A DNA stretch of 64,000 bases from Spizellomyces punctatus DAOM BR117 (lineage: Eukaryota). Position 1 is the stretch's first letter. The number at the start of each line of letters is the position of its first letter. The translations under genes and the position numbers were made by a program. The DNA is taken from assembly GCA_000182565.2 (NCBI GenBank), contig KQ257454.1; one strand, given 5' to 3'. Under the pieces are notes generated by a model that saw nothing but the letters and a program-made list of their open reading frames with translations, was not told the DNA's origin and did no database searches. Shown piece after piece: positions 137 through 39,738 of the stretch.

Positions 137-2918
137 TCAACAACCGAACCCGCAAAACGCGGCGCCTTCCACAGGTGCCTCAAGATCTAGCGTGAACGAT
201 GCTTGAGTCTCCTCGGGTGGTGACCAGACAGATTGGACATTGCGTGAGTCGTGAAGTGTAGATGGTAGCTGGGAGTGAACGGGGTTGTCCCACAGATAGT
301 CGTCCAAAGCGTCGGTGGGTTGTGGCGGTTGCTGTTGCTGATGCTGATGCTGAGGACGAGGATGGTGCGGCTGCGGCTTTTGAGGTGAAACCACCTGAAG
401 ATGCTCCTGCTGCTGATACGGATCGATCTGGGGTTGGTGTTGGGGCATCTCTGAAGTGTAAAATCTATGCAACTGCTGTTGCTGTTGTTGCCGCACAGAA
501 ATCAGCTGTTGCAGGTAGTGCTGAAGTATCGGCTTCGTCGCTACCGGCGGGACGCTTTCGAGCAAGTGGCGAGTCTTGTGCATACTCGCCAGCAGGGACG
601 CCTGGACTCTGCGCCAAGTCTGCCAATCGTGGTTCATCGCGTGGTCGCTTTGGTGGCAGTTGAAAGCTTTTATCCAGCTGTTTAAGCTGCAACTCAGCTT
701 GCGGAAAACTCCAATGCAGACCTCAAGCCCGAGCCAACACAGGAGAAAGCGTTCCCTCTGGCATGACTCGTCTGCCGTCCCTGTTCGGCTGCCATACAGC
801 AACGCCATGCTGTCCAAGATAGATTGGACTGTCGTCACTGCTGTATCCCATTCGCCTGCCGTGATTACCGTCCGCTTCTGGTCGGCCACCAGACCTTGTA
901 GTTTGGAGCTGCCGTGGTGCGGTATTCGCAGTCCGTTCGCCTGATTAGGTTCGTAAACCATAGCTTCTGTCTCATGCTTCTCCGGAATCAATCTCAGATA
1001 AAGCATCTGGAACAAGAGCTGCCGAGTTTGTCCAGTCACATTGTCCGTGTGGCTAAGAGCTTGAGCTTCCATGCTCATATTGAAACGTTGACGGATATTC
1101 GCCATACTCGGTGGCATTGAACGTATCTGGGGAGTCTCGTCAATGTGGGTACCGTGGTTTGTGTCAATAATACATGCGGCCAAGAGACAGATTTCGGTGG
1201 TAGCAACGAACGTACTCAACCGCGAGGCATACACTGACTCTGGCACCATTTTACGATGCTGGAGATCATACTTACTTGACAAAGAACCTTTTTGTTGCGC
1301 GCAAAGTGCGGCATTAGCCGGCCTCGGTTCCATGGCAGACAAGAGGATCGTTGGGGACAAGCCGGACACAATGCGACTGTATAGCGAGAATACGACGCAC
1401 GTCCACCAACAAAAGTTTACCAGTTCGCTCTCGACGTCCTCCTGAGAGATGGACCCGCGCCGGTGTGCAGAAGCTAAAGTCGGGGTATTGGCTGGATGCT
1501 GCTGAGAGCTTTGAAGGGGGTATTCTTTGCGCAAGTTTTGCGCGAGTGTCCACGCCAAATGGATTATCCCTTGCATTTCTTGCATGTTCTTTGGCGAACC
1601 GGCTGGTACTAGCAATCGCTGAAAGATGACGATAAGGAGGGTCTGCAGCATCTCGAGCGATAAGCAGGCGTCGACACGGATATAGATCGCTTCCAGGGCT
1701 ATTGAAAAGGCTCGCTCGCACTCCCCGTTGCATTCGGTGGAAGAATGTGGAGCCGCAGACTCGTCATCCCTGCATGTGCCGATCGCCTGCCGCCAGCACG
1801 AAGCCGCGGCCAACACAGCCAAAGTGAGAGGCCCCGGGGAGGACTGCGTCGCTTGCGATTTGTGGAAAAGGGTTTTGTTCACCAGGTAGGAGAGGGGATG
1901 GAACAGGAAGAACGTCTCAATAAGTTGGAACGTCTCCGCTCCGTCTAGAGTCTTGAGATCCTGCTGTGCTGTTTCCCAGTTATGAGGGCACGGCGAGGTA
2001 TGTGGCATTGGTTCGAGCGTGTTAGATAACTCTTCACCCGAACTGTGCAGCTCCGGGGAGGTACGGCAGACCGCTCTGTTCTTCTGCGCCAAGTCTAGGT
2101 GAGGACGAAGCACCACGCGGAGCAGCCGTCGGGACAGAGCCAAGAAACAAACATGATGGTGTCCGCCACCTGGAACTGAGAGGGAATTGGGCGACCAGGT
2201 CTTGCGCGATTCCGTCGGCATAAGCCAGGGTTGTCGCGAGTCTGGGGAAGAAAATGCAATCATATCGGGGATGCTCCGGAAAAGATCTTCGTCGCCAGAG
2301 TCTCGGACCGACAACCGGGGACTGGCGTGCGGTATTGGCAAACGATTTGGTGTGCCTACTGGTTGGGGACTAGGAAAATCCGCAACAGGGGAGGTTGTGG
2401 TGGAGCTGGGAGGAGTAGACTCCAAGATACTGCTCAAGTCAAGGTCAATTGGCATAGCAGCATGTCGAGGATCAGCGCGAGGAGTACGAGTATGGCCAGA
2501 TCTCGCGGTGCGGCCGTTCTGCGGCTTCGAGCTTGGGCGACCTAGCTTCTGTCTCGGAACATAGATGCATGTTTTTGAAAGCACTCGACATCGATCACAT
2601 CCTTCAATTTGACCTAAAAACGTTGTGCGCGAAACGGTTAGCCATCTGACGTGTCAGCAGCAGGCAGAATGTTCCAGTTTTCTTGCTGGTTTACTCAAAG
2701 CCAAGATCCTCACAGGAGTGCTTAGCACCTTTCGCCAATAAGAGTAGTTTGCGCCCATGTTCTACACAATTTGGGATGTCTCATGCCAGCTTACCACTGC
2801 ATCGAATTTTACGCGCACGACAAGCCTGGCATGCGCTGCGTAGAGGGGGACCGCTGGCGATAGTTGCTCTTCCCGACGAGACACAAGCGGTAAAGAAAGA
2901 CGAACAGTTGGCCGTCAT
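137..2918 (-). CDS. Zn(II)2Cys6 fungal transcription factor with middle homology region and Gln-rich C-terminus; probable cluster regulator
   Basis: Exon 1 (2918-2795) reads MTANC...RSACQACRARKIRCS. A GT-AG intron spans 2794-2614, and exon 2 continues GQIEGCDRCRVLSKTCIYVPRQKLGRP, completing C-x2-C-x6-C-x6-C-x2-C-x6-C. It joins the 815-aa ORF, which has a LIETFFLFHPLSYLVNKTLF-type TF middle region and poly-Q. Confidence 0.92.
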
Positions 2919-3296
2919 CGTTACATTAAGGAATATGCGCAACTCGAGTATGCTGTCGTTCTAGGAGGAGGATGAGCGCGACGGTCGTCAGTGTTGTGTG
3001 CAAGGGCCTGCCTTGACAGTGGAATTAACTTTTGTTGAAAGTGAGCGTAACCGCCGTGGGGCATCTGGAGGGGGGCGGGGGGATGCAACAACTGGACGTC
3101 ACATTTTATTTCGTTTCGCTGGCCGCCCCAGCTATATACGCCTTCCAGCCTTTGGTCTTGCGGGAGCGGCCAATTTCCTTCGATCCAAGCGAGCCATTTC
3201 GACGTTGGCTGTCCTAATGTGCTGATATTGAGGGGTTAACAAACGCTCCAACACGTAGTAGTTGTAAGGACCAGCTTTTCGGAATATCGGAACCTT

Positions 3297-3477: not shown

Positions 3478-5000
3478 TCAGCTGGCGTATATCCGGCCAC
3501 CGGCTGCCACGATTCGCGTGTAGAGCTCGTTCCAGGTTATGCATCGAAATGGCGCCTGAAACCGCGTCCCAGCAACTTGATCTGTTCCTCTAGTTTCTTT
3601 CTCCTGCTTCGGTACGTCATCTGCAGGAGGCTGGGATGTCGAGGAAGTGGCTGGCGGGTAGGAGGTGGTCGCTTCGAACGATGTTGACCAAGGCGTATTC
3701 GAGCATGCGCTCATGACACAACAGGCGACCGGGTGCCGCGAGTCCAAATAACGCAGGTCAAAGTCAATTTGTGCTTGGACAACTGTATCCAACGCAACAC
3801 GTATAGAGCTCGGTAGGTGTACCTATGTGTCAGCACAAAGGAAAGCTCAAAATACAGGTCAAGGGAGTTTGCGTAAAAATCCTTTGGCGATTCTGTTGGA
3901 TCCTTCCGCATGAGGCGATGCAATCACTTACCGTCTCCTGAAGTTCCATCAACGGTGATTGCGCTTGCTCAAATCGGAACTCGACCCGCCGCAAATCGAG
4001 CGCTAACCCGACCCCAATAGCTTTCACGTAGCTCTCCTTCAATGCCCAAAGCTGTGCGAATCGATGCAGCTTCTGCTGCTCTTGAGTCAGTCGCTCCCCT
4101 TGCAGAATAGGGTTAATATCAGGTGCACATATGTCAGCGCGACCGCTGCAACTGCTAGTACGACACGTCTCAGAGCATTTTGGCAGCGTTTCTCTCAGTC
4201 CTGCAGAGCTGTCGAGTCTTCCATCTCCGTCATGGTGACTGCGGCTGCCGTGAATATACGCCCACTCTGCCTCGGTAAACACTTCGTCGAAATCCGCCAG
4301 ATACTCGTCTACGGGTTCGTCCGATGGGTTGTCTACTGACGATACGTCAACTCCCAACTGCTTTGAAAAGCCCGCGGCTATTACAACCCAGTCTCCATGG
4401 TGCGACACGTTGAACTGTAAGAAAGGCACGCGTGGCAAAAACTGACAATCCAGTTAGCAACGGCAGTAGAGTGGTCGAGTACGTTTGACACAGCTCAGAT
4501 AGAGTAGACTGATCCGCAAAGGGTTGACACAAGGTACAGACTTCGATATGCACTTACTAAGAAGGGTTTTTCATGCGCATCTCTGCTGATATCGATGTCG
4601 TACCAGCAAGAATGAAGTGACAGATCTGGGAAGCTATCTTGAGAAGCAAGGAGGGCGATTACTGCAGTACGTGCCAAAAGTTGACCAATGAGAGCTCTAC
4701 ACGCATCGATCCGGAACCTGTATCGCTTGACCCGCTCTTGCTCTGCTGGAGGCAGTAGACGTAGCAATTGATCTGTGAACTACCAAATAAGAGGATTTTG
4801 CGGAAATCTGAATGAGTACGCGCATGCCCTTGTGAAGTCAATGAAGGACAACAAAAGGCAGTACAGCAAGCGGATGCGGGAAAGGATCACTGTTAAGAGG
4901 TTACCTTGTCGCTCGGTGACCATGATGGAACGTAAAATGACCAGCGCAGTGTGCTATCTCCAACCCGGCTGCTCGTATTATGAGTCGATACTGGGATCAT
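3478..5000 (-). CDS. Sfp-type 4'-phosphopantetheinyl transferase (AASDHPPT/Lys5/NpgA-like), 4 exons
   Basis: Spliced product: MIPV...TLRWSFYVPSWSPSDK | FTDQLLRLLPPAEQERVKRYRFRIDACRALIGQLL...HEKPFL | ...FNVSHHGDWVV...LGVDV...FAQLWALKESYVKAIGVGL | ...LDSRHPVA. These are the canonical Sfp motifs (FNxSH, GVD, WxxKESYxKAxG). Confidence 0.93.
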
Positions 5001-6318: not shown

Positions 6319-7418
6319 ATGAGTCCTATACTGTATCAAGACACCCTGCCTGCAACTTCATCGGCCAAGGCCAACTCCAGTGAATCCACTGCTCGCCCTC
6401 CGGTCCCAGCTAGCGATGACAACCTCATCCTACCCGTCGAGACCCAGAACCTCATCGAGTCCGAGGTGCAGAATCTGAAGCATGCGACTCACATTCGTTT
6501 CAACCCAAGACGCTTTCTTGGTTTGAGCGAACCTGAGATTGAAGAGAGTATCCGTCAACTGAGGAAAGACTTTGACTCTCTTCCCACTGATAACTTTGTT
6601 CCCAGCAACTGGAGCCGGTATCGAACCTACTCGCGCGCCATTGTTCTTCCTTGGGAGAAGCCAATGCGTGTCCGGTATCTGCCGCCCTACCTTGACGAGA
6701 ACGGCAACGAGGAGGTTCCGTATAATCAAGGTTCCGTACCAGTTGGAAGTTGGGGCTTGTCGTTTGCCATTTATGTAGCTAAAACCAATTTGCTGCTCTT
6801 CTCTGACACGCAACAGGCGCATTCAATGTGGACTGCAGCAACGTCCGTCGCTGGTACAGCCCCATCACAGAGTCCATTAGGAACCTCCCTCTCCTCAATC
6901 GAATGATTCTAATGGATATTGCCCTCTGTGACTGGTCAGAGGACGAGCTTCGCCACCCGATCTTGGTCGGAATCCACTTTGTCAAGACGGCTCCAAACCC
7001 ATCTTGGCCAGTGGGCATCAACACTCCGAACGCCCTGCACCAGGACGGCCACAAGTTTTCGTTCGTCCACATGGTTCGCAGAAAAAATGCGGCAGGTGGC
7101 GAGAATGTTGTCGCCAAACCAGAGCACGCCGACAAGCACCCCTCCACGGTTCCGGCCAATGACATTTTCACCACGTTTACGTTGGAAGAACCTCTCGATA
7201 GCTTTGCGGTCTATGACGACAAATGCACCCACTATGCAGGTATCGTTCGGTGTTGTGTACAGAGGTATTTTCTCAAGGAAAGAACGTGCGCTCATGTTGA
7301 ATGGGTCGGTTCATTCAAAGGTGCCGTTTTGCAAGCCGAGCCCGGAGACAAGCCCACCGAGCGCAGCGTTTTCATTTTGGATGTCGAGCCCATGGTCGCT
7401 GCGGTCTGCCCAATCTAG
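6319..7418 (+). CDS. 2OG-Fe(II) dioxygenase, PF10014 (BsmA/L-isoleucine-4-hydroxylase-like) family
   Basis: Introns at 6731-6816 and 7240-7320. Motifs FDSLPTDNF...RYRTYSR, YNQG, VGIHFVK, NTPNALHQDG (HxD), RRKNAAGGEN, TLEEPLDS...DDKCTHY and ERSVFILD. TATA-like TATATAAAA at ~6220. Confidence 0.85.
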
Positions 7419-8840: not shown

Positions 8841-11800
8841 CTATTGCTGTCCAGAATTATGCACGAGCCCAAAGAAATGGGAGGTAGAATCCGCCAATAA
8901 GTCACCGGGAGCGCCAATCTCGACCACACGGCCAGCATCCATGACGATGATCTTGTCGTAAGACATGATCGTGTTCACCCCTGCGTGGGACGGGATAGAA
9001 CGATGAGAAATGTTACTGAAAACAAATCTTTGTCAGGGAGAATACATACGATGAGCAATCGTGACCACGGTGCAGTCTCCAAACTCGGTTTTCAAGGTTT
9101 CTTGTATGAGGGCGTCTGTGTCGTTGTCGACGGATGCGGTAGCTTCGTCGAGTATGATGACTTTGGAGTTGCGCAGGATTGCACGGGTCAGGCAAACAAG
9201 TTGCTTTTGTCCCACCGAGAAATTGTCGCCGGCTACCCTCATTTGTAGAAAAAGTGTAACTGGATGAGGGCCCATTTCATTCCTGGCTAGCCAGTACGGC
9301 TCGGACATTACATTACCTTCAGTAACAGTGGCATCCAACCCTCCATCCATTTCCTTCACCAGAGATTTCAATCCCACTTTCTCCAGGGCGGACCACAGCT
9401 CCTGATCGGTGGCTTTGCTGAATGGGTTGAGATTTTCCCGCAGGGTGCCGGTAAACATGAACGCTTCTTGTGGAATGATGGACAAGCGTTCGCGAAGAGT
9501 CGCCAAATCCACGCTGGCAATGTCAACGTCATCAATCTTTATGAAGCCATCCGTACCCTCAACATCAGCTTGATTGAAATCGGACTTTGATATCTCGACC
9601 ATACGTAGCAGAGCAAGGGCTAGGGAAGACTTTCCTGCTCCAGTACGACCAACTAAAAGAAATGGAAGAGGAAAAAGTTATTGATAATGTAGACGTAAGC
9701 TGGACTGCTACCTGAAACTTGCTTATACATACCAATCCCCACTTTCTGTCCACCGTCAATAGCAAATGTGAGGTTCTTCAAAACGAGGTCCATGCCCTCC
9801 CGGTAACGCATATTGACATTCTGGAACTCAATTCTGCCGTTTTGGGGCCACTCTTTGAGATCGCGTTGCGATTGAACGTCCTTTTCCAGTGGAAGGCTGA
9901 GATATTGTTTGAGCCGCTCCGCGTCCACCAGCTGTGTTTGCAGGTAGCCAAGTTTGGTCATCATGAGCGCAACCTCCTGCATAATGGCGAGGATCGTCGA
10001 TACGGCAAGAGCAACAGTCGAGGGGGAGAGCCGTTCGACGGAAACAACGGCAAAGACAGCGCTCGCGAAGACAACCAATGTTGCTGGTGGAGAACGAGAG
10101 AAATGGTAAGTCACCTACCTCTGAACCGGAGCCTACCGACGGCGACACTTACAGACGATGGTGATCCAAAGGGAGAACCACCTGTTCGCGTAGTAGAACA
10201 TGATCAAGGCCGCCTGCTGCCGGTCCATGTTGAGAGCATTCTGCTCGGAATNNNNNNNNNNNNNNNNNNNNNNNNNNNNNNNNNNNNNNNNNNNNNNNNN
10301 NNNNNNNNNNNNNNNNNNNNNNNNNNNNNNNNNNNNNNNNNNNNNNNNNNNGACATATGAAGGAGTCGCTCGTAGACTTGATTCGGAGGTACGCGACAGA
10401 CGCGGGAATGTACTGGTGCATGACAATGTAGCAAATTATTCCTATGGAGAAGAGCAAAAAGAAAGCCACGATCATTTAGGTTCTGCGCGCGCGCAGGTCA
10501 AAGCATCAGCTTTCCCAGTTCAGACAGAGAACCCTACCGGCGACCAGAACAACGATGAGGAATGACGGAAGGCTTATAATTGTCGGAAGAATGTTGACAA
10601 TAACATTTCGCCAGCGCGAAAATCATATCGTAAAAGGCATCCGGAAGACCCACGTCCACAGACGCAAGGTTAGAACTGAAACGGGTCATGATTCGTCCAA
10701 CCGGCGTGACAGAGAAAAACAACCAAGGCATCTTCATGATCCGGGAGAGGAGGTCGTTATGTAGCACGCGACCAGCACGGACACCCATGAAGCACAAGAA
10801 AAGGGAACCAGCCCATGGATAAAGGACGACATAACCAATGACCCAGGCCAGATAAATCCCAAAATAGAAACCCAGGCTGTGGGACGAGGGGTTGTCGTTC
10901 CAGTACAAAAGCCAGTATCTTGAGGCGAGATTGACTCCCTCGGAAACAACGAGTCCCAGAAAGAATGCCGCCAGCAGCGCGAAGGAGCAAGCGCGGAAGT
11001 ACATCATCACAACTTCCCAGCTGACTTTGCCATTCTCAGTTTCCTCCTCTTCGATCAGCTTAGCCTTTTCCCCACCAATCTCCCCTCCGCTTGTGCTGTC
11101 AGGATCGGCCGCTTCGTCTTCTGCCACTGCACCTTCTGTCGACTCTGTTGCTGCCACAACCGCTGTGGGACTATTGAAAAGTGCCTCGGAGATCTTACTG
11201 TCCGCAATCAGGACGTCGTAGGGCCCAGAGGCTACGATCTTGCCTTCCCCAAGCACCAGGACGCGATCAGCGTCCTTCAGGACATGTACAGCATGGGTGG
11301 AGAGCACTCGGGTTTTGGTGGCCAACAAGCCTTGAGGTCCGAGAACACGATCAAAGATGTGCTTTCCAACATGGCGATCAACAGCAGATAACACGTCGTC
11401 GAGAAGATATATGTCTGCATCACCGTAGACCGCACGAGCCAGGGAGACTCGCTGACGCTGGCCACCAGAGAGGTTGACACCGCGCTCGCCAATTTCGGTT
11501 TGATCGTGTGCAGCCAGGAGCTCTAAGTCCCGGGAGAGGGCACAAGCTTCAATGACGAGGTTGTATCGGTTGGCATCGTACGGGCGACCGATCAAGATGT
11601 TGTCGCGGATGGTCCCTTGGTAGATCCAGGGCTTTTGCGAAACGTAAAGGACAGATCCTCCCACGAAAACAAGCCCGCTGGTCTTTTCCATTTGACCAAG
11701 TATCGCAGAGAGTAGCGAAGACTTCCCTGATCCTACTGCGCCGACCACCCCGACAAACTCGCGCGATTTGATGTCCAATTCCATTTCGGTGAGCGTGGCC

Positions 11801-14292: not shown

Positions 14293-14443
14293 GACGTCCT
14301 ACGATGGCCAACGGAAACGGGGACGATGTGCCTCTTCTGGCGGGCAGTTGCTTCCAGAAAGGGCTTTCCCCCCACCGCCAGGCTTTATAGACTTTTATGT
14401 CAGCGGAGCGCCAACCTTTCGGCACTTCCCAATCCAGAACATT

Positions 14444-14494
14444 AAATGCTCCGCGCAACGGTGCAAATGTTATCTAAAAATTAAAAAGCTCCGC
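14444..14494 (-). promoter_or_regulatory. Two candidate Zn2Cys6 sites (GCGGAGCATT, GCGGAGCTTT) ~150-200 bp upstream of the ABC gene
   Basis: Plus-strand aaatgctccgc 14444-14454 and aaagctccgc 14485-14494. Confidence 0.45.
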
Positions 14495-14843: not shown

Positions 14844-15990
14844 TTATCGCAATTGCCCTTCCCTGGCAATCACCGTCGGCTGCGGCTCTTTCGGGCTTCG
14901 ACGTTGCGCTACCAAACTCGGGCAGTTTGTTGACGGGCGCACGGGAGTGTATTCCCTGCTCGCCAAAAAGTACGGCCGAGTCCCTTCGACTGGGGGCTTG
15001 TTGTGCACCGTATTGTAACTGACAATGACTACTTTGCGATCCAACGGAGATAGATTGGCAGGTGATGCGTGGTAAACAAGCGGATGCATCAGCCAAACGT
15101 CTGTTTTTGCGTGGAGAAAGTACGATAGATGTTAATGTGGAAATGGACAGTTTGCTTGTGGCGGGAGCAGTGGGATCGTGTCTTGCAGTTGCACAAGAGG
15201 GATTGAATAGTTAACCTACCTCCAGGTTGACCTCGTCCCAAGACCAAGCCATATTCCGAGACGGCCGCTGAAAGGACGTCCTTCGAGATCGTGTACTTTA
15301 GATTTTCGGTAATTGAGCTCATGTAAGCCGCGGTTATCTTGTCGCTTGGATCCTGGCCGCTAGCTGAACGGGCCATACGTTCGCGGGCAAATCGACGGTG
15401 ATTTTATGAGATAGAGGGACAAACATCGGGGCGCCGTTGAATTCGTCGACAGTGTCCAGATAAATAAAAAAGTTGATGGCGTTCGCCGTTGGGAGAAAAT
15501 CATCTTCGGGACCTTAAATGGATCAGGTAACTGGTGACCTGGGAGACTGTCGAGACCATGTAGCTCAATATAGGGTCAAAGAAAAAGGGCACCAGTACAC
15601 TACGTCTTGGTGCCAGGGCCACACGCCACCGTCGAAAGCGGCTTTCACATTGATTTTAAACTGGCAAAAGATCGTTAGACCAGGATTAGTTAGATTTGCA
15701 CAACAACTTACTACGCTAATTATAGCAAAGTAGGGATTACCTGGTGAACATAGACGTCGTCTTTGAGGATGTTCGCCGCAACCGAAGCCAATTTGGGAAG
15801 TGCAGCCAACTTTTGAAACGTGGGATTCTTTAGATGAGAAGCGTCCAGTCTGTTGGAGCTCCTCGGCAGTTGCAGCACGCAGAACAGACACTTCCTCTGG
15901 AGAGAAGTAGTTGGGAATGTAGAGGATCCCTTCGTGGGCGTATGTCTCCAGCTGCTTGTGGGTGAGAGGCAATGTGTCTACCGGTATCAT
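14844..15990 (-). pseudogene. PhyH-family 2OG-Fe(II) dioxygenase resembling actinobacterial L-proline trans-4-hydroxylase/ectoine hydroxylase; apparently frameshifted
   Basis: Segments LTHKQLETYAHEGILYIPNYFSPEEV, ILKDDVYVHQ|FKINVKAAFDGGVWPWHQDVVYW, EDDFLPTANAINFFIYLDTVDEFNGAPMFVPLSH, ITENLKYTISKD and MHPLVYHASPANLSPLDRKVVIVSYN...RPYFLASR. The frame breaks at ~15843 with no room for an intron, at the ~15592/15510 splice, and near 15360. Confidence 0.75.
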
Positions 15991-25500: not shown

Positions 25501-28500
25501 CTCCCGTCCAGGGCGTCTTGCTACACGAGTTAGTGCAGTGGCGAGCGGATAACCACCCCGACACAATAGCGGCCGAGCTCTATCGTGGTGGAAAACTGAC
25601 CTACCGGCAGCTCATGGAAAACGCGAATCGCCTGGGTCATTATTTGCAACAGATGGGTGTGCGGCCTGACATGATGGTGCCAGTGTGCATGTCGAGGTCT
25701 TTTGATATGCTCGTTGGTCTCTTGGCTATTCTGGCCGCCGGTGGGGCCTACGTGCCGATTAGCGAAAAGATATCCCCTGAACGTATTCGAGACATTCTCA
25801 AAGCAACAAATGCTGCTGTAGTCGTTACAACCGAAAAGCTTTCCGGCCTCTTCCTTGCCGATTCGACTGACTCCAAGCCCAAATGCGTTTTGGTTGATGA
25901 GTTTAAGACTGAGCTTGCAAACTATCCGGCGACACCTGTGGTCACTCCTGGGCTATCTGAGGACAATCTGGCATATGTTCTTTTCACCTCAGGATCCACG
26001 GGCGAACCAAAAGGGGTAATGCTGGAACACGCCAGCGTCGTCAACTCCCTCCGTGCGCACACCCTGTGGAATGTCGGCCCACACTCTCGGGTTCTAAACG
26101 TGTCTCCGTACACCTTCGACCTTTCTGTGACGGATATATTCCTGCCTCTTATATCAGGTGGAACGGTTGTGCTTGCATCGGAAAACGATATTCAAAGCGA
26201 TTTGAGTCAGGTAATAAGGGAAGCACGTATTGACCATGTCGAGCTTGTCCCGTCGCTTGCGGATACGGTTGATCCCGCGTCGGTGCCTGAACTGAAGACA
26301 TTGGTCACCGCGGGAGAAATGTTAACAGAAGTGCTGGTGCAACGGTGGGCTTCGCGAGTCCGTTTGATCAATGGTTATGGACCAACAGGTACGTCTCCCT
26401 TCGCAGCATTCTGATATGATATCAATCCTACTCACCGCATCATCTTCAGAAACCACGATACACTCTCACATGAAGGTGGTTCAACCGAATGATTCTCCAT
26501 TACATATTGGCGCAAGCATTGGAGATGTAGCCACTTACATCTTGAAGGATGACCTCAGCCCGGTGCCTGTTGGGGTTGAAGGCGAGGTTTACATCGGTGG
26601 AACCCAAGTGTGCAGAGGATACCTAAACGGGACTGATTTGGACAAAGAGGCATTTGTATCCAACCCTTACAAGAAGGGTGGACGTCTGTATCGCACCGGC
26701 GACATTGCGCGCTTCCGACCTGACGGGACTCTGGAATTCGTGAGACGCAGAGGAAATCAAGTCAAAGTCAACGGTTTACGAATTGACCTAGAAGCGATTG
26801 ACAATGTCATCGCAAGAGAGGACGTCGTTGAATCCGCCGTGACTCAGCCGGTGAAGTTTAGAGGCAAACAGCTGCTTGTAGCATTCATTGTTGTTGGACA
26901 GAAAAGTAGCTCCGTCCGACTAGCGGTTGAGGCTCTTGAAAAGGCTATCGCTGCCAAGTTGCCCTCATACATGACACCGCGGCACTGGATTCCCCTTGAT
27001 GGTGAGAACTATATTTCATGCTGCAGGCATTGTTTTTTAATGAACGTCGCTAACATTTATGGCGTATCTCAGCGCTTCCGCTGAACGCTAATTTCAAGCT
27101 GGATCGTCGGGCCCTCCAAACGATCTTTTCGGCTGTTGATCTTGTGGCAATCAATACCCTCACGCGCGGTGCCAGCACCAGAAAACACCCTCCGGCGAGC
27201 CAACTGGAAAAGGATCTGCATGACATGTGGACTTTGACCTTGGGTCTTGAACCCTCAGATATAGGAACGAATGATTCTTTCTTCAATCTAGGAGGCGATT
27301 CTCTAGCGCTCATCAAGTTCGTCAATAATGCCCGTGCGAAAGGTCTCTCCATAACGTCATCAGATGTATGTGGTTCGTTAAAGATCCGTTGATTTTGGTA
27401 ACACCTCATTTCTCACCTTTGTGAACATAGTTTTTCGCCAACCCAACCATCGCATGTCTTGCGAAATTCCTTGAGAAAACCAGTCCCCCGGCTCCGGTCT
27501 TGACTGTCAAGCAGCAACCTAATGTGGCTGCGTTCAGCATGTTGACCCTTCCCCAACTGATGGAAATCAGTTCGAGGGACCTTCCCGCCCTAGATATCAA
27601 ACTTGAGGATATTGAGGACATCTATCCGTGCACTCCCATGCAGCGAAGCCTAGTGGCTGCGACAATAACGGGTGAGAGAGCCTCTTATCTCTCACAGATA
27701 GTCTACGAGTTTGAGAAGACACCGAATATCGATCGTTTCAAGAAAGCCTGGCGCGAGGTGATCCGTTCCAACCCGATTTTAAGGACGCTTTTTGTCGTCC
27801 CTCAGACAACCTCGAGCGACCTTCAATGCCTGCAAGTTGTAATGCGCGATGACCTCTCGTCGTGGACCGAGCATCAAATAACAGAGGGAGAAGAGCTAGA
27901 GAAGATTTTGTCCCAAGATCTGGAGAAAGGAGTGAAGCTCGGCTCGCCCTTCATGCGCTTTGCTCTGGTTCGTGCCCCTTCCGCAAACGTCAAGTTCATC
28001 TGGACCATTCACCACGCGCTATACGATGGATGGTCGACGAACATGATATTGGACGACCTAGAAGCTGCCTGTCGCGGTGAAGCGTTAACATTGCGGCCGG
28101 CCTATAAGGGATTCGTTCAATATTTGGTCCAGCAAGACAGGGAGAAGGCTGCCGAATTCTGGAGACAACAGTTGAAGGACTTTGCGGGAATGACCTTCCC
28201 GCGGTCGCCGTCATCCACCTACCAAGCGAAGAGTACCGGGAACTTGACCTGTGCCGTTAATGTGGATTTGGGCAAACATGCCAGGGAGCTTGGCGTTACG
28301 ATCTCAACTATTTTCCGTGCAACGTGGGCCCTTGTTCTTGCTTCCCATGCCAACACGAATGATGTGTCGTTCGCCTGCGTTAGTTCAGGACGCAGTGTTC
28401 CGGTAGACGATATTGAGTATATCAACGGCCCATGCATTACATGCGTCCCGGTCCGAGTCGTTTTGGACAAAAGCATGACTGCTACGAACTTCTTGCAGGT

Positions 28501-31500
28501 GCTACAGAAGCACCACCTTGACATGATGCAATATGAACATTGCAGTCTGATGGACGTGCTGAATTGCGGGCCTGGCTTGTCTGGCTTGAGCGGGCTGTTT
28601 ACGACCATGCTGGTGATTCAAAATCAACCCGAAGCTGTAAAAGACATGGACGCATCTGGTCTCAAATTTCTCAGAGCCGAGATGGGCATGGACAGTGGAC
28701 TCTGCCTTGAGCTTAAGAAAACCGACTCAGGATGGATGGTGGTGGTTGATTTTGATGAGGAGATTATTACTGAAGGAGAGCTCAAATGGATCATGGCTCA
28801 CGTCTGTCACGGCATCAAAGATCTGGTTCAACGCCCTAACGCCGCGCTCCGGGACATCCAGTTGAGCAGCCTGGAAGAAATGGAATTTCAGCGTACCCAA
28901 TGGGGTCGGCAGATCGTAGAGGTTGACGCGGATCTGTGCATTCATCAACTTGTTGAACGTCAGGTCGCGCGAACACCGCATAAAAATGCCGTAGAGTTTC
29001 TGAACGGCCCAACTTTGACGTATGCCGAGTTGAACTGTCGCAGCAACCTCCTCGCACGTCACTTGCAAGAAATTGGCGTTGGTCCAGAGGTCCTTGTGCC
29101 CATATGTGTTGGACGATGCATTGAAATGGTCATCGCGGTCCTTGGAGTGCTCAAGGCTGGTGGCGCTTACGTTCCGCTCGATCCCGATATTCCAGCGAAG
29201 AGGATCAACTTCATCATCGAGCAGACGAAGAGCACATTAGTGGTGACAACATCGAACCTTGTGTCCATCCTGCAAGCTACTCTGGAGGCAAACGTCATGG
29301 CGGTGGAACATGTTTTGTCTGACGATCCAGGCACACCTGTCGAGAACTTCAGCGTTCCCTCGCTCTCGTCAAGCAACCTTGCGTACATAATCTATACCAG
29401 CGGCTCCACCGGCGACCCGAAAGGAGTCATGATCCCCCATCGTGCAATTGTATCCGCAAGCGGCGGTTTTTGCGAGCGGTACTCTCATGGTGAAAGCGAC
29501 CGCCGCTTGAACTATGCCACTTTCACGTTCGACGACTGTGTTATGGATTTTTTTGCAACGTTGAGGACAGGTAAGGAAGACAGTTATCGTTCCGCAAAAG
29601 GTTCGGATCACTCAGTCAATGCTGTCCCCTAGGTGGCACGATCTGTATGGCCTCCAGGGAAGACCTTACAACCGACTTGGATGGCGTCATCGCCGAAATG
29701 AAGGTGACTTTCCTGGCTGCTACACCGTCTGTACTTGCCCTGCTTGATCCACGGCGGGTCCCTACCATGCGGGCTATGGATATTGGTGGGGAGCCTATGA
29801 TGCAGGAGCTTGTTGAACGCTGGGGAGGATTGGTTCATCTTGGTAATGGTTACGGACCGACGGAAACCTGCTGTCTCAGTCACTCCCACCGGCATTATAG
29901 CGACGAAAAGAACATTCATTTGATTGGGTATCCTTATCGAGAAGTTGCTCAGTACCTTCTCGACGACAAACTCAAGCCTGTACCTATTGGGTGCGTGGGG
30001 GAGATTTGTTTAGCAGGTCCGCAGCTGGGACGAGGATATCTGGGTCACCCAGAATTGACTTCCAAGGCATGGATTAACCATCCCCAGTTGGGATTGATAT
30101 ACCGAAGCGGCGATCTTGGGCGCTACTGGTACGACGGCCAGCTTATTATCTTAGGACGACAAGATGATCAAGTGAAGCTGCATGGATTACGGATCGAGCT
30201 TGGCGAAATTGAAAACGTTCTGTTAAGAGCACAAGAAGTCAAATATCTTGCGGCAGTCGTGATGACCCTTGCTGGAGAAAATGACAAAAGCCTTGTGTGC
30301 TTCTACGACCTGCACAGGTATCGAGATGAAAACCACAAATGCACTTTCCTCCCGTCAAACGACTTCGTGCAATCAGTCACTGGCGGTTTGATTACTCTCG
30401 CTCGGTCTGCGCTGCCCTATTACATGGTCCCATCCATGTGGGTCCCAATGACGCGGTTGCCCCTCAACAAGAATGGTAAGATTGACAAAAAGAAGCTTAA
30501 GCAGCTCACAGTGGTTCGCTCTAACAGAGAGACTGCCGAGTTGGAAAACCCGCAAAGCGACACTGAGCAGGAGATTTTTAACATCGTGAAAAAGCTGGTT
30601 GGGAATGAACACTTCGGTGTAGATGACGTCTGGTGGACAGTTGGTCTAAACTCGCTGTCGATGATTCGATTTGTGGGAACACTGAGGACCTCATTTCCTT
30701 CATCAGGTTTGACGATAACTGATCTTGTACCAAATGCAACTATCCGGCAACTCGCGGTTTACATAGACAAGTACGGGGGTCGAGGAGGGGGTGACACGAA
30801 CGCAGAAGCGAACTCACAAACAACAACCGAAGAGCGCTCGATGCTAGCGGACATAGGTCATGGCCGTTTCCCCGCCTCATTTACTCAAGAGCGAATGTGG
30901 CTAGCGCAGCAAATTTGGAATGACAGCACCTACCATATCCCAGAGCTAATGCGAGTTCGCCAACCGCTAAAGCCGGATCTTCTGATCAAATCAATGCACC
31001 TAGTGTGCCAGCAAAATGCGATTCTCCGAACCACGTTTGAATTCGATGGGGACAATGTGATGCAAATTGTAAATAAGAAGATTGACTATGAATTCAAGTC
31101 GCTTGACCTGACCGCGGAGGGCGATCCTCTTGCAGCGCTTCGAAAGCTATGCGCAGAGGACAATGCCACACTTTTCAACCTCAGCGATAAACCCGCCGTT
31201 AGATTCATGATCTTCGAGTTGGGCAGTAATGATTACGCTGTTTACCTCAATGTTCATCATATCATTGCAGATGAGTGGACCTTCGCTCTTTTACTGAACG
31301 AGCTCTCCCACACGTACGCGATACTCATACAACAGAAAGCGGACGTTGGTATCGGTCATGCCTCGTTGGAGTACGTCGATTTTACATTAGGGCAACGACG
31401 CCACCTGTCGGAGGTTGAAAGCCAGCAATTGGACTTCTGGGGAAATGCACTCAAGGACGTGGTCCCCGCAAAATTTCCGTCGTTGCAGAGCAACAAGATA

Positions 31501-34500
31501 GATGATAAGTCAGCAGCGAATAACGAAGAGCTTTTCCTGGACCCCGTAGTCGTGGAGGCGTTTCTAGCCGTCTGCAAAAGCCAAAATGCATCCCCTTACG
31601 TAGGCTGGCTGTCCCTTTTCCAAATTCTTGTTTACCGCTATTGTCAATCGACGGATTTCGCCATTTTGACACCTGTCACAAATCGAGCAGCGATTTACGC
31701 GGACGTGATGGGCTGCTTCCTGAACACGCTTGCGATCAGCACGAGACTTGAACCTGACCTCCCGTTTGTCAACTACCTCCGACAAAACATGCAAGTTGTG
31801 AACGAGCATCTGGCTAACATGGATGTACCCTTCGAAAGAGTCATCAGCGAAGTGTACGGAAAGGAAGCACGGCTAATGTTGTCGGAGTTCCAGGTTATGT
31901 TTGCCTACGTTACCGACAACAAATACGTCGCGGATCAGCAGAACATCTTCCAAGACGCGGAGCAGCTGCCTATTAATACCGAGCGAAGGGGATATTACGA
32001 TGTAGCTCTCTCTCTCGTAGAAGGTCGCGGAGAAAATCAAGTCTCAATTAGAATTGAGTGTAACGGGCACTTGTATGACTCCAGGTACATCCGAGCACTC
32101 GCGGGACACTTCCAAGAATTGTTGCTGTCCATTACGAGGAAACCTTCGACGGCCATCGGCTCACTGCGGATGGTCCCAAAAGAGGAAGAGAACTTACTCA
32201 TCAGAAACGAGTATGTGTGCAACACCTGCGATGAGACCGAAACGTTTCATGGCTTGTTTGAAAGGCAGTGCATTAAGACCCCTCATTCAATCGCCCTGGA
32301 GCATCTTGATGGCAGAAGTGTGACGTATGCGGAACTAGATGCGAAGGTAGATGACCGTTCGAGCTGCGTCCGGTTGCTTTTCCTCCGAACTCACTGACAA
32401 ATCCCATTTTCAGGCCAATTCAATTGCGCGGTTCCTGCGATCCGAAGGCGTTCCCCTTGAAACACCTATAGTGTTATGCCTCGACAAATGCTTCGACGCC
32501 GTGTGGTGGATGTTGGGAGTTACTAAAGCTGGGTGTTGCTGGGTACCAATAGAGCCTGCAGCCGTAGCCGAGAAACAAGATCTGATCATTCGCGCGGCGA
32601 AGGCACCATTTGTTGTCACAACCACCAAATACTCGGCTGACTTCCGCCGCGCAGGACACAGAGCTATCGAAGTGGACGTAGAGGACATTGTTTCGAAAAT
32701 GCCAACCTCGCCGGTTGAAGCACTGCACGTAACATCGGGCTTGTTGGCATATATTCTCTTTACCTCGGGGACCACGGGAACACCAAAAGGTGTCATGGTG
32801 GAGCATCGGGCTGCTGTTAAGTTTATCGACCTTTGCGCAGACGAGCTTGGAACGACTGAAAGTACTCGCGCCCTCAACTTTTCAACGTATACCTTCGACC
32901 TCTCCATCCTGGATATTTTCTGCACGCTTGCAAGAGGGGGCACCGTTTGTGTTGCACCTGCCGCGGAGATGCACGGCAATTTAGCAGCAGTAGTTCGAAA
33001 CCTTTCTGCGAACGCTCTCACTCTCACACCCACCGTGATATCCCTGCTCTCTCCGGAAGAAGTTCCATCTCTGAAAGTTCTTTGCTCAGCAGGCGAGCCT
33101 ATCACGCAGACGATTGTGGCGACGTGGTTCCCATATCTCGACAGGCTTCTTAATGCGTATGGTGAGTGCGGACTGCACATTTGACACCTCTAAATAATTT
33201 TGCTAATTCCAGTGTAGGTCCCACGGAAACGGCAGTTACAACTATTTGTCGGCCGGATCCGTCCACGTTTCCTACCATTATCGGAGGGGCTGTCGGTTCC
33301 AGCTTATGCCTAGTCGTCGATGAAAGGATGAATCTAGTGCCCATTGGCGTCAGTGGCCAGTTAGCGGTAGGAGGAGGTCATTTGGCGAGGGGCTACCTCA
33401 ACCGGGCAGATCTCACCAGGGAGAAATTCATCGACAATCCTTTTGTGCCCAGAACACGCATGTATCTGACAGGTAAGCAACGGGCCCCTTGGAAGGTCTC
33501 CTGCGGATTTAAGTTTAAGTTGATCGTCACACTTCCGCGCCTTAGGTGACCGTGTCAGATTGCACGCCAATGGGCAGTTTGAATATTTTGGTCGCATCGA
33601 CAATCAGGTGAAAATAAACGGTCGACGGACGGAGCTAGGTGAAATCGAGCACGCAATCTTGGAGGTCCGCTGCGTTCGAAATGCATGTGTTGTCTTGCAA
33701 ACCGGAGACAATGCCTCTCTTATCGGCTACGTTACATTCAAAGATGTTAGCGGAACTGTTGCCCAGATAACGGACGGATCAAAGGATCAAGACCTGGAAG
33801 CTATCCGATCTCTCTTGAGGAAGAAACTCCCACCGTACATGGTACCGCGAAAATTGATACCGATGGCAGATTTCCCTCTGAGCAAGGCTGGCAAGATCGA
33901 CCGCGGCAAACTCCGGTCATGGAGGTTCCTTGAACAAAAGCCAGCGCAAGCACAGAGTGATAGAAAAAGAGAATCCAAGGACTACGAGCACGAATTGCTG
34001 GGGCTTGTGGCTCAGATCGTGAACAGTGCGGACATCGACCCAGACGATGACTTGTCCGCGGTCGGTTTGGATTCTTACGGCATGATGCGCCTGATGCTAC
34101 GTATACGAAAGACCTACCAAGTGGAATTGACGGTGTCCGAAATTCAGAAGTGTTCCTCCGTAGGCTCTCTTTGTAATTTGATTTCCCGCAAAAGAGAGTC
34201 CGGTCACAACGACAAACAATCAGCTTTGGAGATTTCCCTACTCCGAACGATAGCTGACTTACTCAAGTATGACGTGATTGAGGCGGAAGACAATTTAATT
34301 GCCAATGGATTAGAATCATATGCCATCATGCGACTTATTTCGCGAGTCAGGAAGGAGTTTAACATGGACTTGACGATTTCGGAGGTGTCAGCAAACCCCT
34401 CGGTCCGCTCACTCGCTGCACTTATCAGCAGGAAGCGACATCCACGCTCTGACACTGTATCCGAAGAATCTGCTACGATTGCCCAGGAGAAACAATATCC

Positions 34501-37500
34501 AGCATCCTACACCCAAGAGCGCATGTGGGCAGCGCAGATAGCCCACGGCGACAATGCCTATCACTTGGCCAAGCTGGTTGTCGTGGAATCCCTGTTGGAT
34601 TGCGAGCTCCTCGTCAAAGCGATGGAGGCTGCCTGCCGGAGACACACCATCATGCGGACGACTTACAAGCTAAATTCTGATTTTTCGGAACTAGTGCAGG
34701 TCATCAGGAGGAATCTGCCTCTTAACTTTGAGATCGTTGACCTGGCTCAATCTGCGGATGCCGTTGAGGAAATGAAATCTCAATGCCGAGCGGACAACCT
34801 GATTCTGTTTGACTTATCGACTGAAGCTCCAATCAGGTTCAGAGTGTTCAAACTAGGCCAAGCAACCGGTGTCTATCTCAACATTCATCACATTGCCGTG
34901 GACGAATGGGGGCTCAACCTTTTGCTCGATGAGGTGACTTTGATTTACCACCATTTGGTAGCAGGCCGATCGGTGAGCCTGGAGCCCGCCATGCAATTTG
35001 TACCTCTTACTTTGAGGCATCGCCAGCTTCTTGAGGCGAACAACAGAGAGCTCTGGAACACCCAGTCTCGCTTTGCTTCATATCATGTGAGATACCCACC
35101 ATTGATCTGTCGGAGAGTCAACGTCTGCCGGATGGCGGCAGGGGAACTGCTGTTTGGAGTGAAGAGGTGCCTTTGGACCAGGCAGCCACAAAGCGATTCC
35201 TGGAGCTCTGCTCAAACGCAGCGGTCTCTCCTTTCACTGCATATCTTTCCCTTTTCCAGACTCTTATTGCCAGGTATGTTATACGCTATCGCGGATTTCA
35301 TGTAACTCTTACTAAACGTAATCCTTGCCAGACAAACTGGGCAGTACGATTTTGGCGTCGTGACACCTGTGAGCCTCCGTAGCAATGTTCGAGAAAGCTT
35401 TACATCTGTCGGCTGCTTCATCAATACAGTCGTGGTCCGCGCCCAGCTTGAGGAACACGACTCGTTTAAGGATGTTTTGAAGAAAACAAGGGTGAACATT
35501 AACCGAGTCCTTGAAAACAGCGACATTCCATTCGAGACGGTCATGACCTCAAAAGGGATTTCACCATCGACCTTACAGCTCATGTTCGACTTCACTACCT
35601 CGAGTGGGCCTCAAAGCGAGCATAATATTATAGCTCGTGGAACGGAGCTGGATCTAGACAGTACTACCACCGCTCACTTTGCGTTTACCTTCAATGTCGA
35701 TGCCAGGGGCAGCCCTAAAACTCCGACATTGATATCCATACAGTACGATGGCAAATTTTTTGAAGCGCAATTAGTGGAAAAGATGTTGGGAGACTACGCG
35801 AAGCTGCTCGACGTGGTAACCTCTAGTCCAGACGACCGAATTGCCACGCTCAACCAGTGCGAGGGTGAGGAGAACCTGATTCTGCGGGGTCCAGTCGCGC
35901 CATTGCCGTACGATTGTATCCACCACGGCTTTGAACTGGCGGCTGTTTCTCATTCCCAGCGGATCGCCATACAGCACGGCGATCGCAACCTAAAGTACCG
36001 AGAGCTGGACAAGAAAGCGAATGCTGTGGCCTGTCGGTTGCGCGCATTTGGAGTCCAACCAGGCATCTACGTGGCAATAGTAGTGCACAGATCCATTGAG
36101 ATGGCAGTGGCACTGCTTGCAACCTTGAAGGCTGGCGGAGTGTGTGTGCCTATCAGCGCCGACTTCCCCACGGATCGCATCAAGTATATTTTGCAGACGG
36201 TCTCGACCAGGATCGTGTTGACTACGAGGGACGCTTATGACATTGTTCCGTCGCTGGATGCAACGACGTCATGCCATTTGATTGAAGATTTGGCATCCCA
36301 GAATGAAATGGATGAGAAACCAGACGACCTTAGTACTGGAAATACCATTGCGTACTGTATTTTTACGTGAGTACATGAATGGCTATCTCCGAAGTCGCTG
36401 AACTCGCCAATAAGTAGCTTTCATATTCCCATCATTAGGTCGGGAACAACTGGAACACCCAAAGGAGTCATGGTGCCTCATAAGGGAATTGTCAATAACA
36501 TCCTGCACCACCCATTCACGTGCCATTGCAAGCCCGGAGTTAAAGTTGCACAAATGCTGGGAATTTCATTCGACGGCGCACTGCAAGAACTGTACGGAAC
36601 ATGGTTCACGGGGGCCACATTGGTACTTCGCGAGGAAGACATCTTCAAGACTCTCAGAAACGTGGAGTGCATAAACTTGACTCCAACGGGAATCATGCAG
36701 ATGGAGCCAAGCGAGTTTCCCAACCTCAAGGTGGTCCTGGCTATTGGAGAAGCTTGTCCGGACTCGCTTGTGAAGAAGTGGGGTAATCACGTCAATTTCT
36801 ACGTCGACTATGGGGCGGTAGGTTTTTTGGGAGATCATCCAGTAAACCGTATCGTGGTCTCACCTGGACCGCTTTTCAAATATCTTTTAGACCGAGACTT
36901 CCGTTACCACCTCCTGCACACCACCTTTGAAACCCGGGATTCATATCGGTATTGGCAAACCTTTCGCCAATAATTCTTATTACGTGCTTGACAAGAAGCT
37001 GAGACACGTACCAGTGGGCGGGAAGGGACAGATACACGTTGGAGGCATCGGAGTGTCACTGGGCTACATCAACAACCCGGAACTTACGGCATGCAAGTTC
37101 TTGCGGGATCCCTTCAGCAAGACCGGAGGGAGGATGTATGCTACCGGAGACATGGTGCGAAGACTTGCGAATGGGGAACTCGAGTTTGCCGGTAGAGTGG
37201 ACGATCAAATCAAACTTGGAGGCTACCGGGTGGAGCTCAACGAAGTCACCTCGGCACTTCTACGAACGCCGGACGTTGGCCTGGCCGCTGCAATTGTCCA
37301 CGAAAGTGTTCTGATTGCATTCGTTAGCCCGTCCACAGTGAACTTGGACGGTCTCAAGAAGAGCATAGAAAAGTTCCTTCCACCGTACATGATTCCGGGG
37401 AAATTTGTTGCTATCGATGAATTCCCACGCACGTTTAACGGCAAAGCCGACGTGAGACGCTTGCGCGAGGAACTCAAGAACCAGCAATCCAGCACGTTTG

Positions 37501-38739
37501 ATTCCGTCATGACGAACACGTTGAGAGATTTTCGACAGCAGCTGCTCGCGCAAATCTGGTCGACGATACTCAAGGTCGACATGGATCGCATTAGGCCTGA
37601 AACTTCCTTCTTTGAGTTGGGCGGTAACTCAATGTCTGCGGTTCGGATGATACTAGCAGCCGGTCAGCAGGGTATCAAATTGACTCTCGCGGACGTGTAC
37701 CAGAAACCCACACTGGCAGCACTCGCACCTGACTCGATTGGAGCGAAGGCAGCAACTCAGCTGTTGAACAGCGGTCCCTCGAGATCAACTCCAAAAAAGA
37801 TCTCATCATCGGTGACAGCAATCCCGTCCAGCTACACGACGCAATTAGAACAGCCTCATAAGAAACCCGAACCAAACGTTCTAACCAGAGCGTCGCCCGG
37901 CGCAAAGAAACTGCGTGTCTTGTGCTTGCATGGCTCGGAAACGAGTGGGAAAATCTTATCCCTTCAATTGCAAGCCCTTCAACAGAAACTGCAAGACCAA
38001 GTCCAGTTCTACTTTGTCGATGGACCACGGAAACAGTACACGTCCTGTAAGTGTGGGAACACCAAAAAAGGTCAATGGCTACCTACTGACTCTGTCTCTC
38101 TTTTTCCCTCCAGATATTTCAAAGTACTTTGATGGCCCCTACTTCCGCTGGCTGCCAGCTTCCTCATATGATGTCGGCGAACGCAGCGCCATGGCGGCCG
38201 TGAACCACCTCATAAACAAGATGGACGCGATCGGAGGGCAATTTGACGGAATTTTAGGATTCTCGGAAGGAGCCAGCATTGTGGAGCTGGTAGATCGTCT
38301 GAGCACACAAGGACGCATTGCCCGAAAATGGAATTTCAGTGTCTTGATCAGTGCATGTACCGTGAAGGTTTCTTCTCCTGGTGCCTCATCATGGCTTCGA
38401 CGTCCTTTTGAAGGAGGATACCTGCGCCTTCCCTCCGTCCACGTTATTAGCTCCAAGGACTACCTGTTCCGAAAAAGCATGAAAGTCGAATGTCGCTACG
38501 AACCAGAGCTACGACATGTGGTCACGCATGACAGCGGACATCAGATCCCTCAAACACCCGGATTCATCAAGCAGTTGGCTGACCGGATTCTAGATGCAGC
38601 TGCGTTGGCTGAAGATCTCTCCTTAGCCTTCCCAACTCACAAAATAGACGACGAGTTCGAGTTTGTGAAGAGGAGCAAGGCAAAGGGCGGGTGGTTGCGG
38701 ACAATACGCCGTGCTATCAAGAATTCAATGATCTCTTGA
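19573..38739 (+). CDS. Five-module NRPS: C(half)-A1-T1-E-C-A2-T2-C-A3-T3-C-A4-T4a-T4b-C-A5-T5-FSH1 hydrolase; ~19 introns, one apparent frameshift at ~35055-35090
   Basis: Five (Y/F)TSG(T/S)TGxPKG A3 motifs. T serines: GGDS (~22354, ~27291), GLNS (~30643), GLDS (~34064), GLES (~34306), GGNS (~37619). E domain HHLVMDLVSW...EGHGRE...RTLGWFTT. C domains HHSIIDQ, HHALYDG, HHIIADE and HHIAVDE. GT-AG introns join all ORF-track pieces in frame except at ~35.07 kb. Confidence 0.96.
37911..38600 (+). other. C-terminal FSH1/DUF341 (LovG-like) serine hydrolase domain of the NRPS
   Basis: LRVLCLHGSETSGKIL...YFVDGP...FDGPYFRW...FDGILGFSEGA...LPSVHVISSKD...HDSGHQIP gives a Ser/Asp/His triad. It is in frame with T5 in ORF 36927..38132 through a Ser/Thr/Pro-rich linker. 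Confidence 0.88.
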
Positions 38740-39679: not shown

Positions 39680-39738
39680 GTAGCTAGTGCCAGTTTCTGT
39701 CACCTCTACACTAAGACAACTACCTAAGAAAGTGTTTT

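Follow-up and report, generated by a model that had tools for sequence, protein, structure and literature searches.

A five-module nonribosomal peptide synthetase cluster with an FSH1 terminus in the soil chytrid Spizellomyces punctatus

A 64,000-nucleotide stretch of contig KQ257454.1 from the soil chytrid Spizellomyces punctatus DAOM BR117 (assembly GCA_000182565.2; the whole stretch is called the window below) carries a gene cluster built around a five-module nonribosomal peptide synthetase (NRPS). The cluster is real, and the reading frame of its NRPS is intact. With a little more confidence than doubt, we read the locus as a functional, normally silent secondary-metabolite cluster that would work by the mechanism proposed below. 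The general kind is familiar, namely a core synthetase accompanied by tailoring oxygenases, a regulator and a pump. Three departures from described systems stand out: a terminal FSH1 hydrolase domain on the synthetase, the chytrid host, and a hydroxylase that appears to have been recruited from the carnitine pathway and remodelled. Since the genome is publicly available with annotated genes, the sequence was already known, and it is the reading of the locus that is new.

Gene content of the window

The window is intron-rich, with about 50% GC, and holds two runs of N (10252-10351 and 45095-45700). A Pfam scan was made on its stop-to-stop, exon-sized open reading frames (ORFs). All eight functions of the cluster were found contiguously: a Zn2Cys6 transcription factor, an Sfp-type 4'-phosphopantetheinyl transferase (PPTase), a PF10014 dioxygenase, an ABCC transporter, a PhyH dioxygenase, a TMLH/BBOX-like dioxygenase, the NRPS, and FSH1. 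A first-pass annotation, made from the sequence alone, had listed these same eight functions, and the Pfam and PDB searches bore them out in roughly the places where it had put them. The same annotation recognized no characterized cluster with this architecture, and none emerged from the protein and literature searches made here.

The synthetase has an intact reading frame

The NRPS gene lies at 19573..38739 on the plus strand. In the spliced model its coding sequence comprises 17,847 nt and encodes 5,948 aa with zero internal stops. The coding region is divided among about 19 ORFs in differing frames, and a GT-AG intron 56-87 nt long spans every break. Removal of these introns restores core motifs such as NGYGPTE, NAYGPTE, TSGTTGTPKGV and YCIFTSGTTGTPKGV. 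The gene had initially been described as a few long ORFs. That description was wrong, as 19 introns are present and the gene starts at 19573. Independent DNA reads filled 30 of 30 bins across 10352-30351; 4,302 of the 4,558 reads were at least 99% alike, and none contained an insertion or deletion. Frame changes in this interval are therefore introns and not assembly errors. The possibility that the NRPS is a pseudogene was considered and rejected, each frame change being spanned by one of these motif-restoring introns.

The domains are ordered as a condensation (C) domain remnant, A1-T1-E, C2-A2-T2, C3-A3-T3, C4-A4-T4a-T4b, C5-A5-T5 and FSH1, where A, T and E denote adenylation, carrier and epimerization domains. 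The N-terminal C remnant lacks HHxxxD. Five AMP-binding domains carry TSG(T/S)TGxPK, six PP-binding serine motifs are present, and HHxxxD occurs five times (once in the E domain and in each of four C domains). By its recurring A, T and C domains and their core motifs, the protein belongs among modular (type A) NRPSs. Module 4 contains the tandem carriers T4a and T4b (33992..34441, plus strand), recognized as two PP-binding stretches with GLDS and GLES serines.

The first-pass annotation had placed an epimerization domain behind module 1, and this assignment was upheld. The domain, at 22513..23826 on the plus strand, finds its best PDB matches in PvdL (6.8e-78), GrsA T-E (7.4e-56) and TycA E (2.6e-45), with LgrA, the first match of another kind, at 3e-21. 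It also carries the E-type motifs HHLVMD, a unique EGHGRE, and TLGWFT.

Stachelhaus-type specificity codes were extracted for all five A domains (A1 DNWLISGATK, A2 DLTEVAGIHK, A3 DDMADGGCLK, A4 DLLTCAAVTK and A5 DGQNLIDVTK) and are reported as codes, with no substrate assigned to any. The codes were read off at landmark positions, and part of the A domains of relatives also yielded codes. A search with a 940-aa exon among proteins of 1,646-4,700 aa returned mostly bacterial multi-module NRPSs at 26-30% identity, which was uninformative on orthologues.

The C domains begin in two different ways. C2 and C3 (24068-25132 and 27431-29570) open with (Y)PC(V/T)P(L/M)Q, a typical motif among fungal C domains, and C4 and C5 (29633-32346 and 33546-35086) open with (F/Y)PAS(F/Y)TQERMW, which is typical of the bacterial LCL type. 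This pattern hints at a mosaic origin of the module set.

An FSH1 hydrolase domain follows the last carrier

The FSH1 serine-hydrolase domain (PF03959) occupies 37905..38739 on the plus strand, is interrupted by an intron at 38047-38113, and carries the motifs LHG, GFSEG and GHQIP. Its two exons score 36.0 and 57.8 bits against a Pfam cut-off of 21. T5 and the N-terminal part of FSH1 share a single exon and reading frame, which makes the fusion independent of the splicing model. Among canonical release domains, Pfam detected no PF00975, reductase or further C domain after T5; FSH1 alone follows. Canonical thioesterase, reductase and terminal C domains occupy the same place after the last carrier, where PF03959 stands instead in this protein. 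Thioesterase domains are also Ser-His-Asp alpha/beta hydrolases. Against the PDB the FSH1 exon had 1ycd as its sole match, and this match is weak (E = 0.3).

The last FSH1 exon (38116-38736) was searched against 1.84 billion representatives and gave 250 matches with E of at most 1e-3. Among the 150 matches listed, 14 are proteins longer than 1,500 aa in which the match to FSH1 lies at the C-terminus. These 14 NRPS-like proteins can all be named. Eleven come from chytrids (Thoreauomyces, Geranomyces, Chytriomyces, Quaeritorhiza, Globomyces, Polyrhizophydium, Zopfochytrium, Phlyctochytrium, a second NRPS of S. punctatus, Batrachochytrium dendrobatidis and B. salamandrivorans) and three from Calcarisporiella thermophila. 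The alignment of these termini shows conservation of LHG, of the nucleophile motif GFS(Q/E)G and of the histidine motif GH(x)(I/V)P. Judged from these matches, the FSH1 terminus is a recurrent hallmark of chytrid and Calcarisporiella NRPSs. The first-pass annotation had missed this chytrid context, the systems that it chose for comparison implying a locus from Dikarya.

Two further observations concern the same exon. In two of the C. thermophila NRPS-FSH1 homologues, P0123 and P0126, the nucleophile Ser is replaced by Cys (GFCQG and GYCQG). The top match overall is a 171-aa fragment from Fimicolochytrium jonesii at 62% identity, and no representative exceeds this value, though the collections include other proteins of the strain. 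The public model of this NRPS may lack the last FSH1 exon, or the NRPS may be absent from the library searched.

A described protein of similar ending is the NRPS-like BDEG_03514 from B. dendrobatidis, given by Bushley and Turgeon (2010; PMC2823734) as T-C-T-A-T-FSH1, with FSH1 directly after the last carrier as in the window. That protein differs in being only about 1,700 aa long with one A domain, as opposed to five modules here, and no described accessory cluster is known for it. Proteins of B. dendrobatidis and B. salamandrivorans (P0141 and P0160) are among the FSH1 matches. A precedent for release by an FSH-type hydrolase is LovG of the fungal polyketide clusters (Xu et al. 2013, cited in PMC10512364), whose reported role is thioesterase release of a carrier-bound product. 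LovG is a free-standing enzyme of Ascomycota that serves a polyketide synthase in trans, whereas FSH1 is in cis on an NRPS here; the two are likened by description.

A remodelled TMLH paralogue adjoins the synthetase

The TMLH/BBOX-like iron/2-oxoglutarate (Fe/2OG) dioxygenase gene is located at 16859..18393 on the plus strand. Its product combines GBBH-like_N (2.6e-10) with TauD (1.1e-26); a start codon for the gene was not found in the window. The nearest structures are human BBOX1 (2.9e-17 with the exon and 1.4e-41 with the Powellomyces hirtus orthologue) and TmpA. The TauD exon is 100% identical to the annotated S. punctatus protein P0295. P0295 (324 aa) starts with MSLEV and lacks GBBH-like_N; the window encodes that zinc-finger part at 16859-17170, and the orthologues of P. 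hirtus and F. jonesii possess it. The P0295 annotation is probably 5'-truncated.

Copies of the cluster type are found in S. punctatus (100%), P. hirtus (80%) and F. jonesii (65%), compared with about 53% for the ordinary TMLHs of the same species. These identities mark the gene as a duplicate specific to the lineage. When metagenomes were scanned with the alignment of this paralogue, only three distant loci were recovered, at 22-32% identity, and these were given no weight.

Residue roles in human TMLH, with Tyr217, Trp221 and Tyr234 forming the cage and Asp231 also assigned, were taken from PMC7764450, and the corresponding positions were placed by combining these roles with an alignment to BBOX1. 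All three cluster-type proteins keep the equivalents of Tyr217, Asp231, HxD, the second His and the Arg. At the Trp221 position all three carry His, and at the Tyr234 position Phe, so that none has the full trimethylammonium cage. Among the other TMLH-like proteins, the Trp221 site is Trp in 12 of 14 and Tyr in the remaining 2, and the Tyr234 site is Tyr in 14 of 14. Human TMLH and BBOX1 (3O2G/4BG1) share with the cluster enzyme the GBBH-like_N and TauD domains, the HxD...H triad, the 2OG-binding Arg, and the Tyr217 and Asp231 equivalents. They serve the carnitine pathway, whereas the cluster paralogue has the two cage replacements and its gene adjoins an NRPS. Since the catalytic residues and Asp231 are kept and the cage is changed, the enzyme looks active and suited to an alpha-amino acid, and its substrate is probably not trimethyllysine.

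Other genes of the cluster and its flanks

The gene for the PF10014 (IDO/BsmA-type) Fe/2OG dioxygenase, annotated as SPPG_03063, lies at 6319..7418 on the plus strand. The Pfam score is 77.3 bits against a cut-off of 23.1. Its nearest structures, BsmA-type proteins (8w8h, 9dqp) and the L-isoleucine 4-hydroxylase IDO (6lnh), are weak matches of 1e-4 to 1e-3. The exon is 99% identical to SPPG_03063 (P0288) of S. punctatus DAOM BR117. SPPG_03063 and P0295, the latter annotated as 'trimethyllysine dioxygenase', share a 1,543,596-bp scaffold, and when both are mapped back onto the window their exons are reproduced. The identities of these two proteins assign the locus to this chytrid or to a strain nearly identical with it.

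The PhyH-family Fe/2OG dioxygenase gene (14844..15985, minus strand) has about four exons, three of which give collinear matches of 18.1, 23.7 and 13.1 bits (cut-off 22) to model positions 3-118, 123-162 and 190-212. In the PDB it comes nearest to entries labelled phytanoyl-CoA dioxygenase, to the leucine hydroxylase GriE (2e-9) and to EctD (2e-4). At position 15552, within the putative first intron, the window has G, and A was seen in 113 of 119 DNA reads and in 6 of 6 RNA reads; this mismatch reflects either a strain difference or an assembly error. All three dioxygenase families had been said to hydroxylate free amino acids or their derivatives. PDB sequence searches agreed, in that the nearest structures of all three are enzymes acting on such substrates.

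The Zn2Cys6 transcription factor gene extends from an ATG at 2918 to a stop codon at 137-139 on the minus strand (137..2918) and encodes 866 aa. Its extent had previously been drawn too short at the 5' end, the gene reaching 2918. The main ORF (140-2653) opens with CDRCRVLSKTC and an upstream exon contains CQACRARKIRC. A 181-nt GT-AG intron (2794-2614) splits the Zn2Cys6 motif, and the spliced product reads CQACRARKIRCSGQIEGCDRCRVLSKTC. The resulting spacing, C-x2-C-x6-C-x6-C-x2-C-x6-C, agrees with the pattern CX2CX6CX5-12CX2CX6-8C; exon 1 scores 18.5 bits for Zn_clus, under the cut-off of 21.

The PPTase gene, of the Sfp/AASDHPPT type, comprises at least two exons at 3830..4779 on the minus strand, with approximate ends. 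It matches AASDHPPT_N at 39.9 bits (5e-10) and ACPS at 54.5 bits (1.4e-14), and in the PDB human AASDHPPT (3.7e-14) and Sfp (1.8e-8). The ABCC-type transporter gene (8841..14099, minus strand; many exons, approximate ends, C-terminal exon at 8844-9032) probably encodes a TMD0 followed by two units of a transmembrane and a nucleotide-binding domain. Two ABC_tran and two ABC_membrane domains are clear, and TMD0_ABC scores 20.6 bits, under its cut-off of 27. In a chromatin immunoprecipitation sequencing (ChIP-seq) run of the same species label, sharp enrichment was seen at the 5' end of the ABCC gene (13020-15020) and at the start of the NRPS (18356-19689). Depth summed over both mate orientations reached about 88 and about 27, respectively, over a background of about 1.5-3.5.

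An ATP-grasp gene (41523-42920, minus strand; ATP-grasp_3 6.1e-5; a single exon of 465 aa, with no PDB match) and an Abhydrolase_3 gene (42992-44176, plus strand; Abhydrolase_3 3.1e-49) stand head to head 2.8 kb downstream of the NRPS, with 71 bp between their start codons. These two genes may be further members of the cluster. The 2.8-kb non-coding stretch past the NRPS contains a duplicated segment of about 320-1,000 bp: 39355-39672 and 40029-40348 are 89-96% alike, 39012-39127 matches 39749-39864 at 82%, and two inverted-repeat pairs are also present (39012-40348). Farther downstream, 44001-46000, around the second assembly gap (45095-45700), has a GC content of 36%.

Relatives and comparable systems

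The closest relative of the NRPS among the long proteins listed is KAI9088773.1 (P0212) from Phlyctochytrium arcticum, an uncharacterized protein of 5,471 aa with a near-identical copy, KAI9098314.1. One unbroken, collinear alignment of 4,483 columns at 38.8% identity matches it to residues 1478-5842 of the window NRPS. Like the window NRPS, it has five A-T units and a C-terminal FSH1 domain (with GFSQG); unlike in the window NRPS, a motif scan finds one carrier in module 4, and module 1 is not followed by an E domain. The A5 codes of the two proteins agree at 9 of 10 positions. No named, characterized relative was returned by the protein searches, and the literature searched yielded no characterized counterpart and no mention of the locus tags; supplements, which may hold genome-mining tables, lay outside that search.

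Among known systems, the echinocandin and pneumocandin clusters of Ascomycota likewise combine an NRPS with several Fe/2OG amino-acid hydroxylases and an ABC transporter. They differ from the present locus in phylum, terminal domain and hydroxylase families, and the locus has no lipid-loading module. The bacterial-like pentapeptide NRPSs of Mortierella alpina also have five modules, incorporate D-residues and come from an early-diverging fungus.

A proposed pathway

The catalytic roles, substrates, release chemistry, regulation and export described here are predictions. The Sfp-type PPTase of the cluster would prime the six carrier domains, and the five A domains would load five amino acids. 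The E domain would convert the residue of module 1 to its D form, and the four C domains would then assemble an enzyme-bound pentapeptide. In place of a thioesterase, FSH1, acting through the GFSEG serine and the GHQIP histidine, would free the peptide from T5 by hydrolysis or cyclization. The PF10014, PhyH and TMLH-like enzymes would hydroxylate at least one building block as the free amino acid. The TMLH-like enzyme, a duplicated carnitine-pathway enzyme that keeps the Asp binding the alpha-amino group, would, with its changed cage, probably beta-hydroxylate another amino acid, which is probably still cationic. Control of the cluster would fall to the Zn2Cys6 factor, and the ABCC pump would export the product.

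A bolder extension of this scheme is offered tentatively, at somewhat less than even confidence. FSH1 would then define a thioesterase-independent class of NRPS off-loading domain that arose in zoosporic and early-diverging fungi. The product would be the first chytrid nonribosomal peptide, a D-residue-initiated pentapeptide with a beta-hydroxylated cationic residue supplied by a recruited, cage-remodelled carnitine-pathway hydroxylase.

Linkage, expression and alternative readings

The first-pass annotation had held that its reading would fall if these genes were neither co-regulated nor linked in relatives. For part of the set, linkage does appear to be conserved. P. arcticum has its PF10014 orthologue (75%) and the NRPS P0212 on contigs of one and the same length, 72,564 bp. 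A length of 801,127 bp is shared in F. jonesii by the contigs of the PF10014 orthologue (80%), of the TMLH paralogue (65%) and of the FSH1 fragment, and the housekeeping TMLH of that species is on a different contig, of 786,645 bp. Indirectly, these equal lengths suggest that part of the gene set has stayed linked.

A number of observations count against a single functional cluster with the proposed pathway. Linkage in P. arcticum and F. jonesii was read from contigs of equal size and not from synteny that was seen, and on an 801-kb contig it would in any event be loose. The two orthologues of P. hirtus are on contigs of differing size (665,811 and 107,209), which gives linkage no support. The codes of modules 2 and 4 differ between P0212 and the window NRPS, so that relatives need not share a product. 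The FSH1 Asp (SSKDY) is present in the window, and the Asp column is variable among homologues. The 838-aa main exon of the transcription factor has no Pfam family and no Fungal_trans or middle-homology domain, and the ABCC gene encloses the 100-N assembly gap at 10252-10351. In one RNA-seq run of the same species label, only 25 of 26.4 million records fell on 10352-30351. Most of these reads are on the PhyH gene and the central part of the NRPS, their mate orientations agreeing with the predicted strands, and no splice joint was reported. The run confirms neither an intron nor co-expression, and the cluster is all but silent in it. Such clusters are usually silent under laboratory conditions.

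Three other readings of the locus were weighed. It is possible, though rather unlikely in our judgement, that the NRPS is real and the appearance of a self-contained cluster is in part a neighbourhood effect, with the PPTase a general Lys2/NRPS activator, the TMLH paralogue carnitine-like, the PhyH gene decaying and the ABCC transporter a general one. Between PhyH exons 1 and 2 no GT-AG join spares the HQD iron motif. The only junction that keeps HQD is a poor GC-AG intron (15590-15513), an interval covered by 6 RNA reads, and the PhyH gene may be defective. The PPTase could be either an extra copy or the organism's sole Sfp-type enzyme. A housekeeping TMLH (P0303) is on the same 1.54-Mb scaffold, no TMLH paralogue of P. 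arcticum was found among the 120 matches listed, and the genes are not tied together by expression data. A functional cluster is better suited to the pairing of PF10014 with the NRPS homologue on the 72.5-kb contig of P. arcticum and to the three components on one F. jonesii contig. The remodelled cage, present in all three species that have the TMLH paralogue, argues against a plain carnitine role, and seven natural-product-type genes occupy 39 kb with no unrelated gene detected between them.

A product that serves as a siderophore or metal chelator, with beta-hydroxylated residues as ligands, seems improbable. The tandem carriers of module 4 and the TauD-superfamily hydroxylase and ABC transporter adjoining the NRPS would suit such a product, and hydroxy-aspartate and hydroxy-histidine siderophores of bacteria and the tandem carriers of ferrichrome-type synthetases offer parallels. 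However, the ORFs scanned included no ornithine N-monooxygenase, acyltransferase, ferric reductase or siderophore importer, the five A domains are distinct and do not follow the iterative ferrichrome layout, and the TauD-type enzyme descends from TMLH and not from SyrP-like Asp hydroxylases. That the locus is a silent evolutionary relic whose product is no longer made is highly improbable. RNA coverage near zero and the doubtful PhyH splice junction are what a relic might display, but selection would be needed to maintain an 18-kb coding sequence that has 19 introns and neither a stop nor a frameshift. Furthermore, the A, T, C, E and FSH1 domains all retain their catalytic motifs, and in three related genera the accessory genes have orthologues at 65-88% identity. 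A functional, normally silent cluster thus remains the reading that we favour.

Significance

Zoosporic fungi are held to be poor in secondary metabolites, according to PMC7466969, and no characterized NRPS product of a chytrid was found in the literature searched. The locus is a compact, apparently complete test case, for which DNA, ChIP and RNA data sets exist from the species, and it makes testable whether chytrids make nonribosomal peptides. It also makes testable whether an FSH1 hydrolase can substitute for a thioesterase in chain release, a question of wider interest given the NRPS-FSH1 relatives in the amphibian pathogens B. dendrobatidis and B. salamandrivorans. Lastly, the paralogue beside the NRPS opens to experiment the possible re-tooling of TMLH, an enzyme of primary metabolism, for a natural-product pathway.

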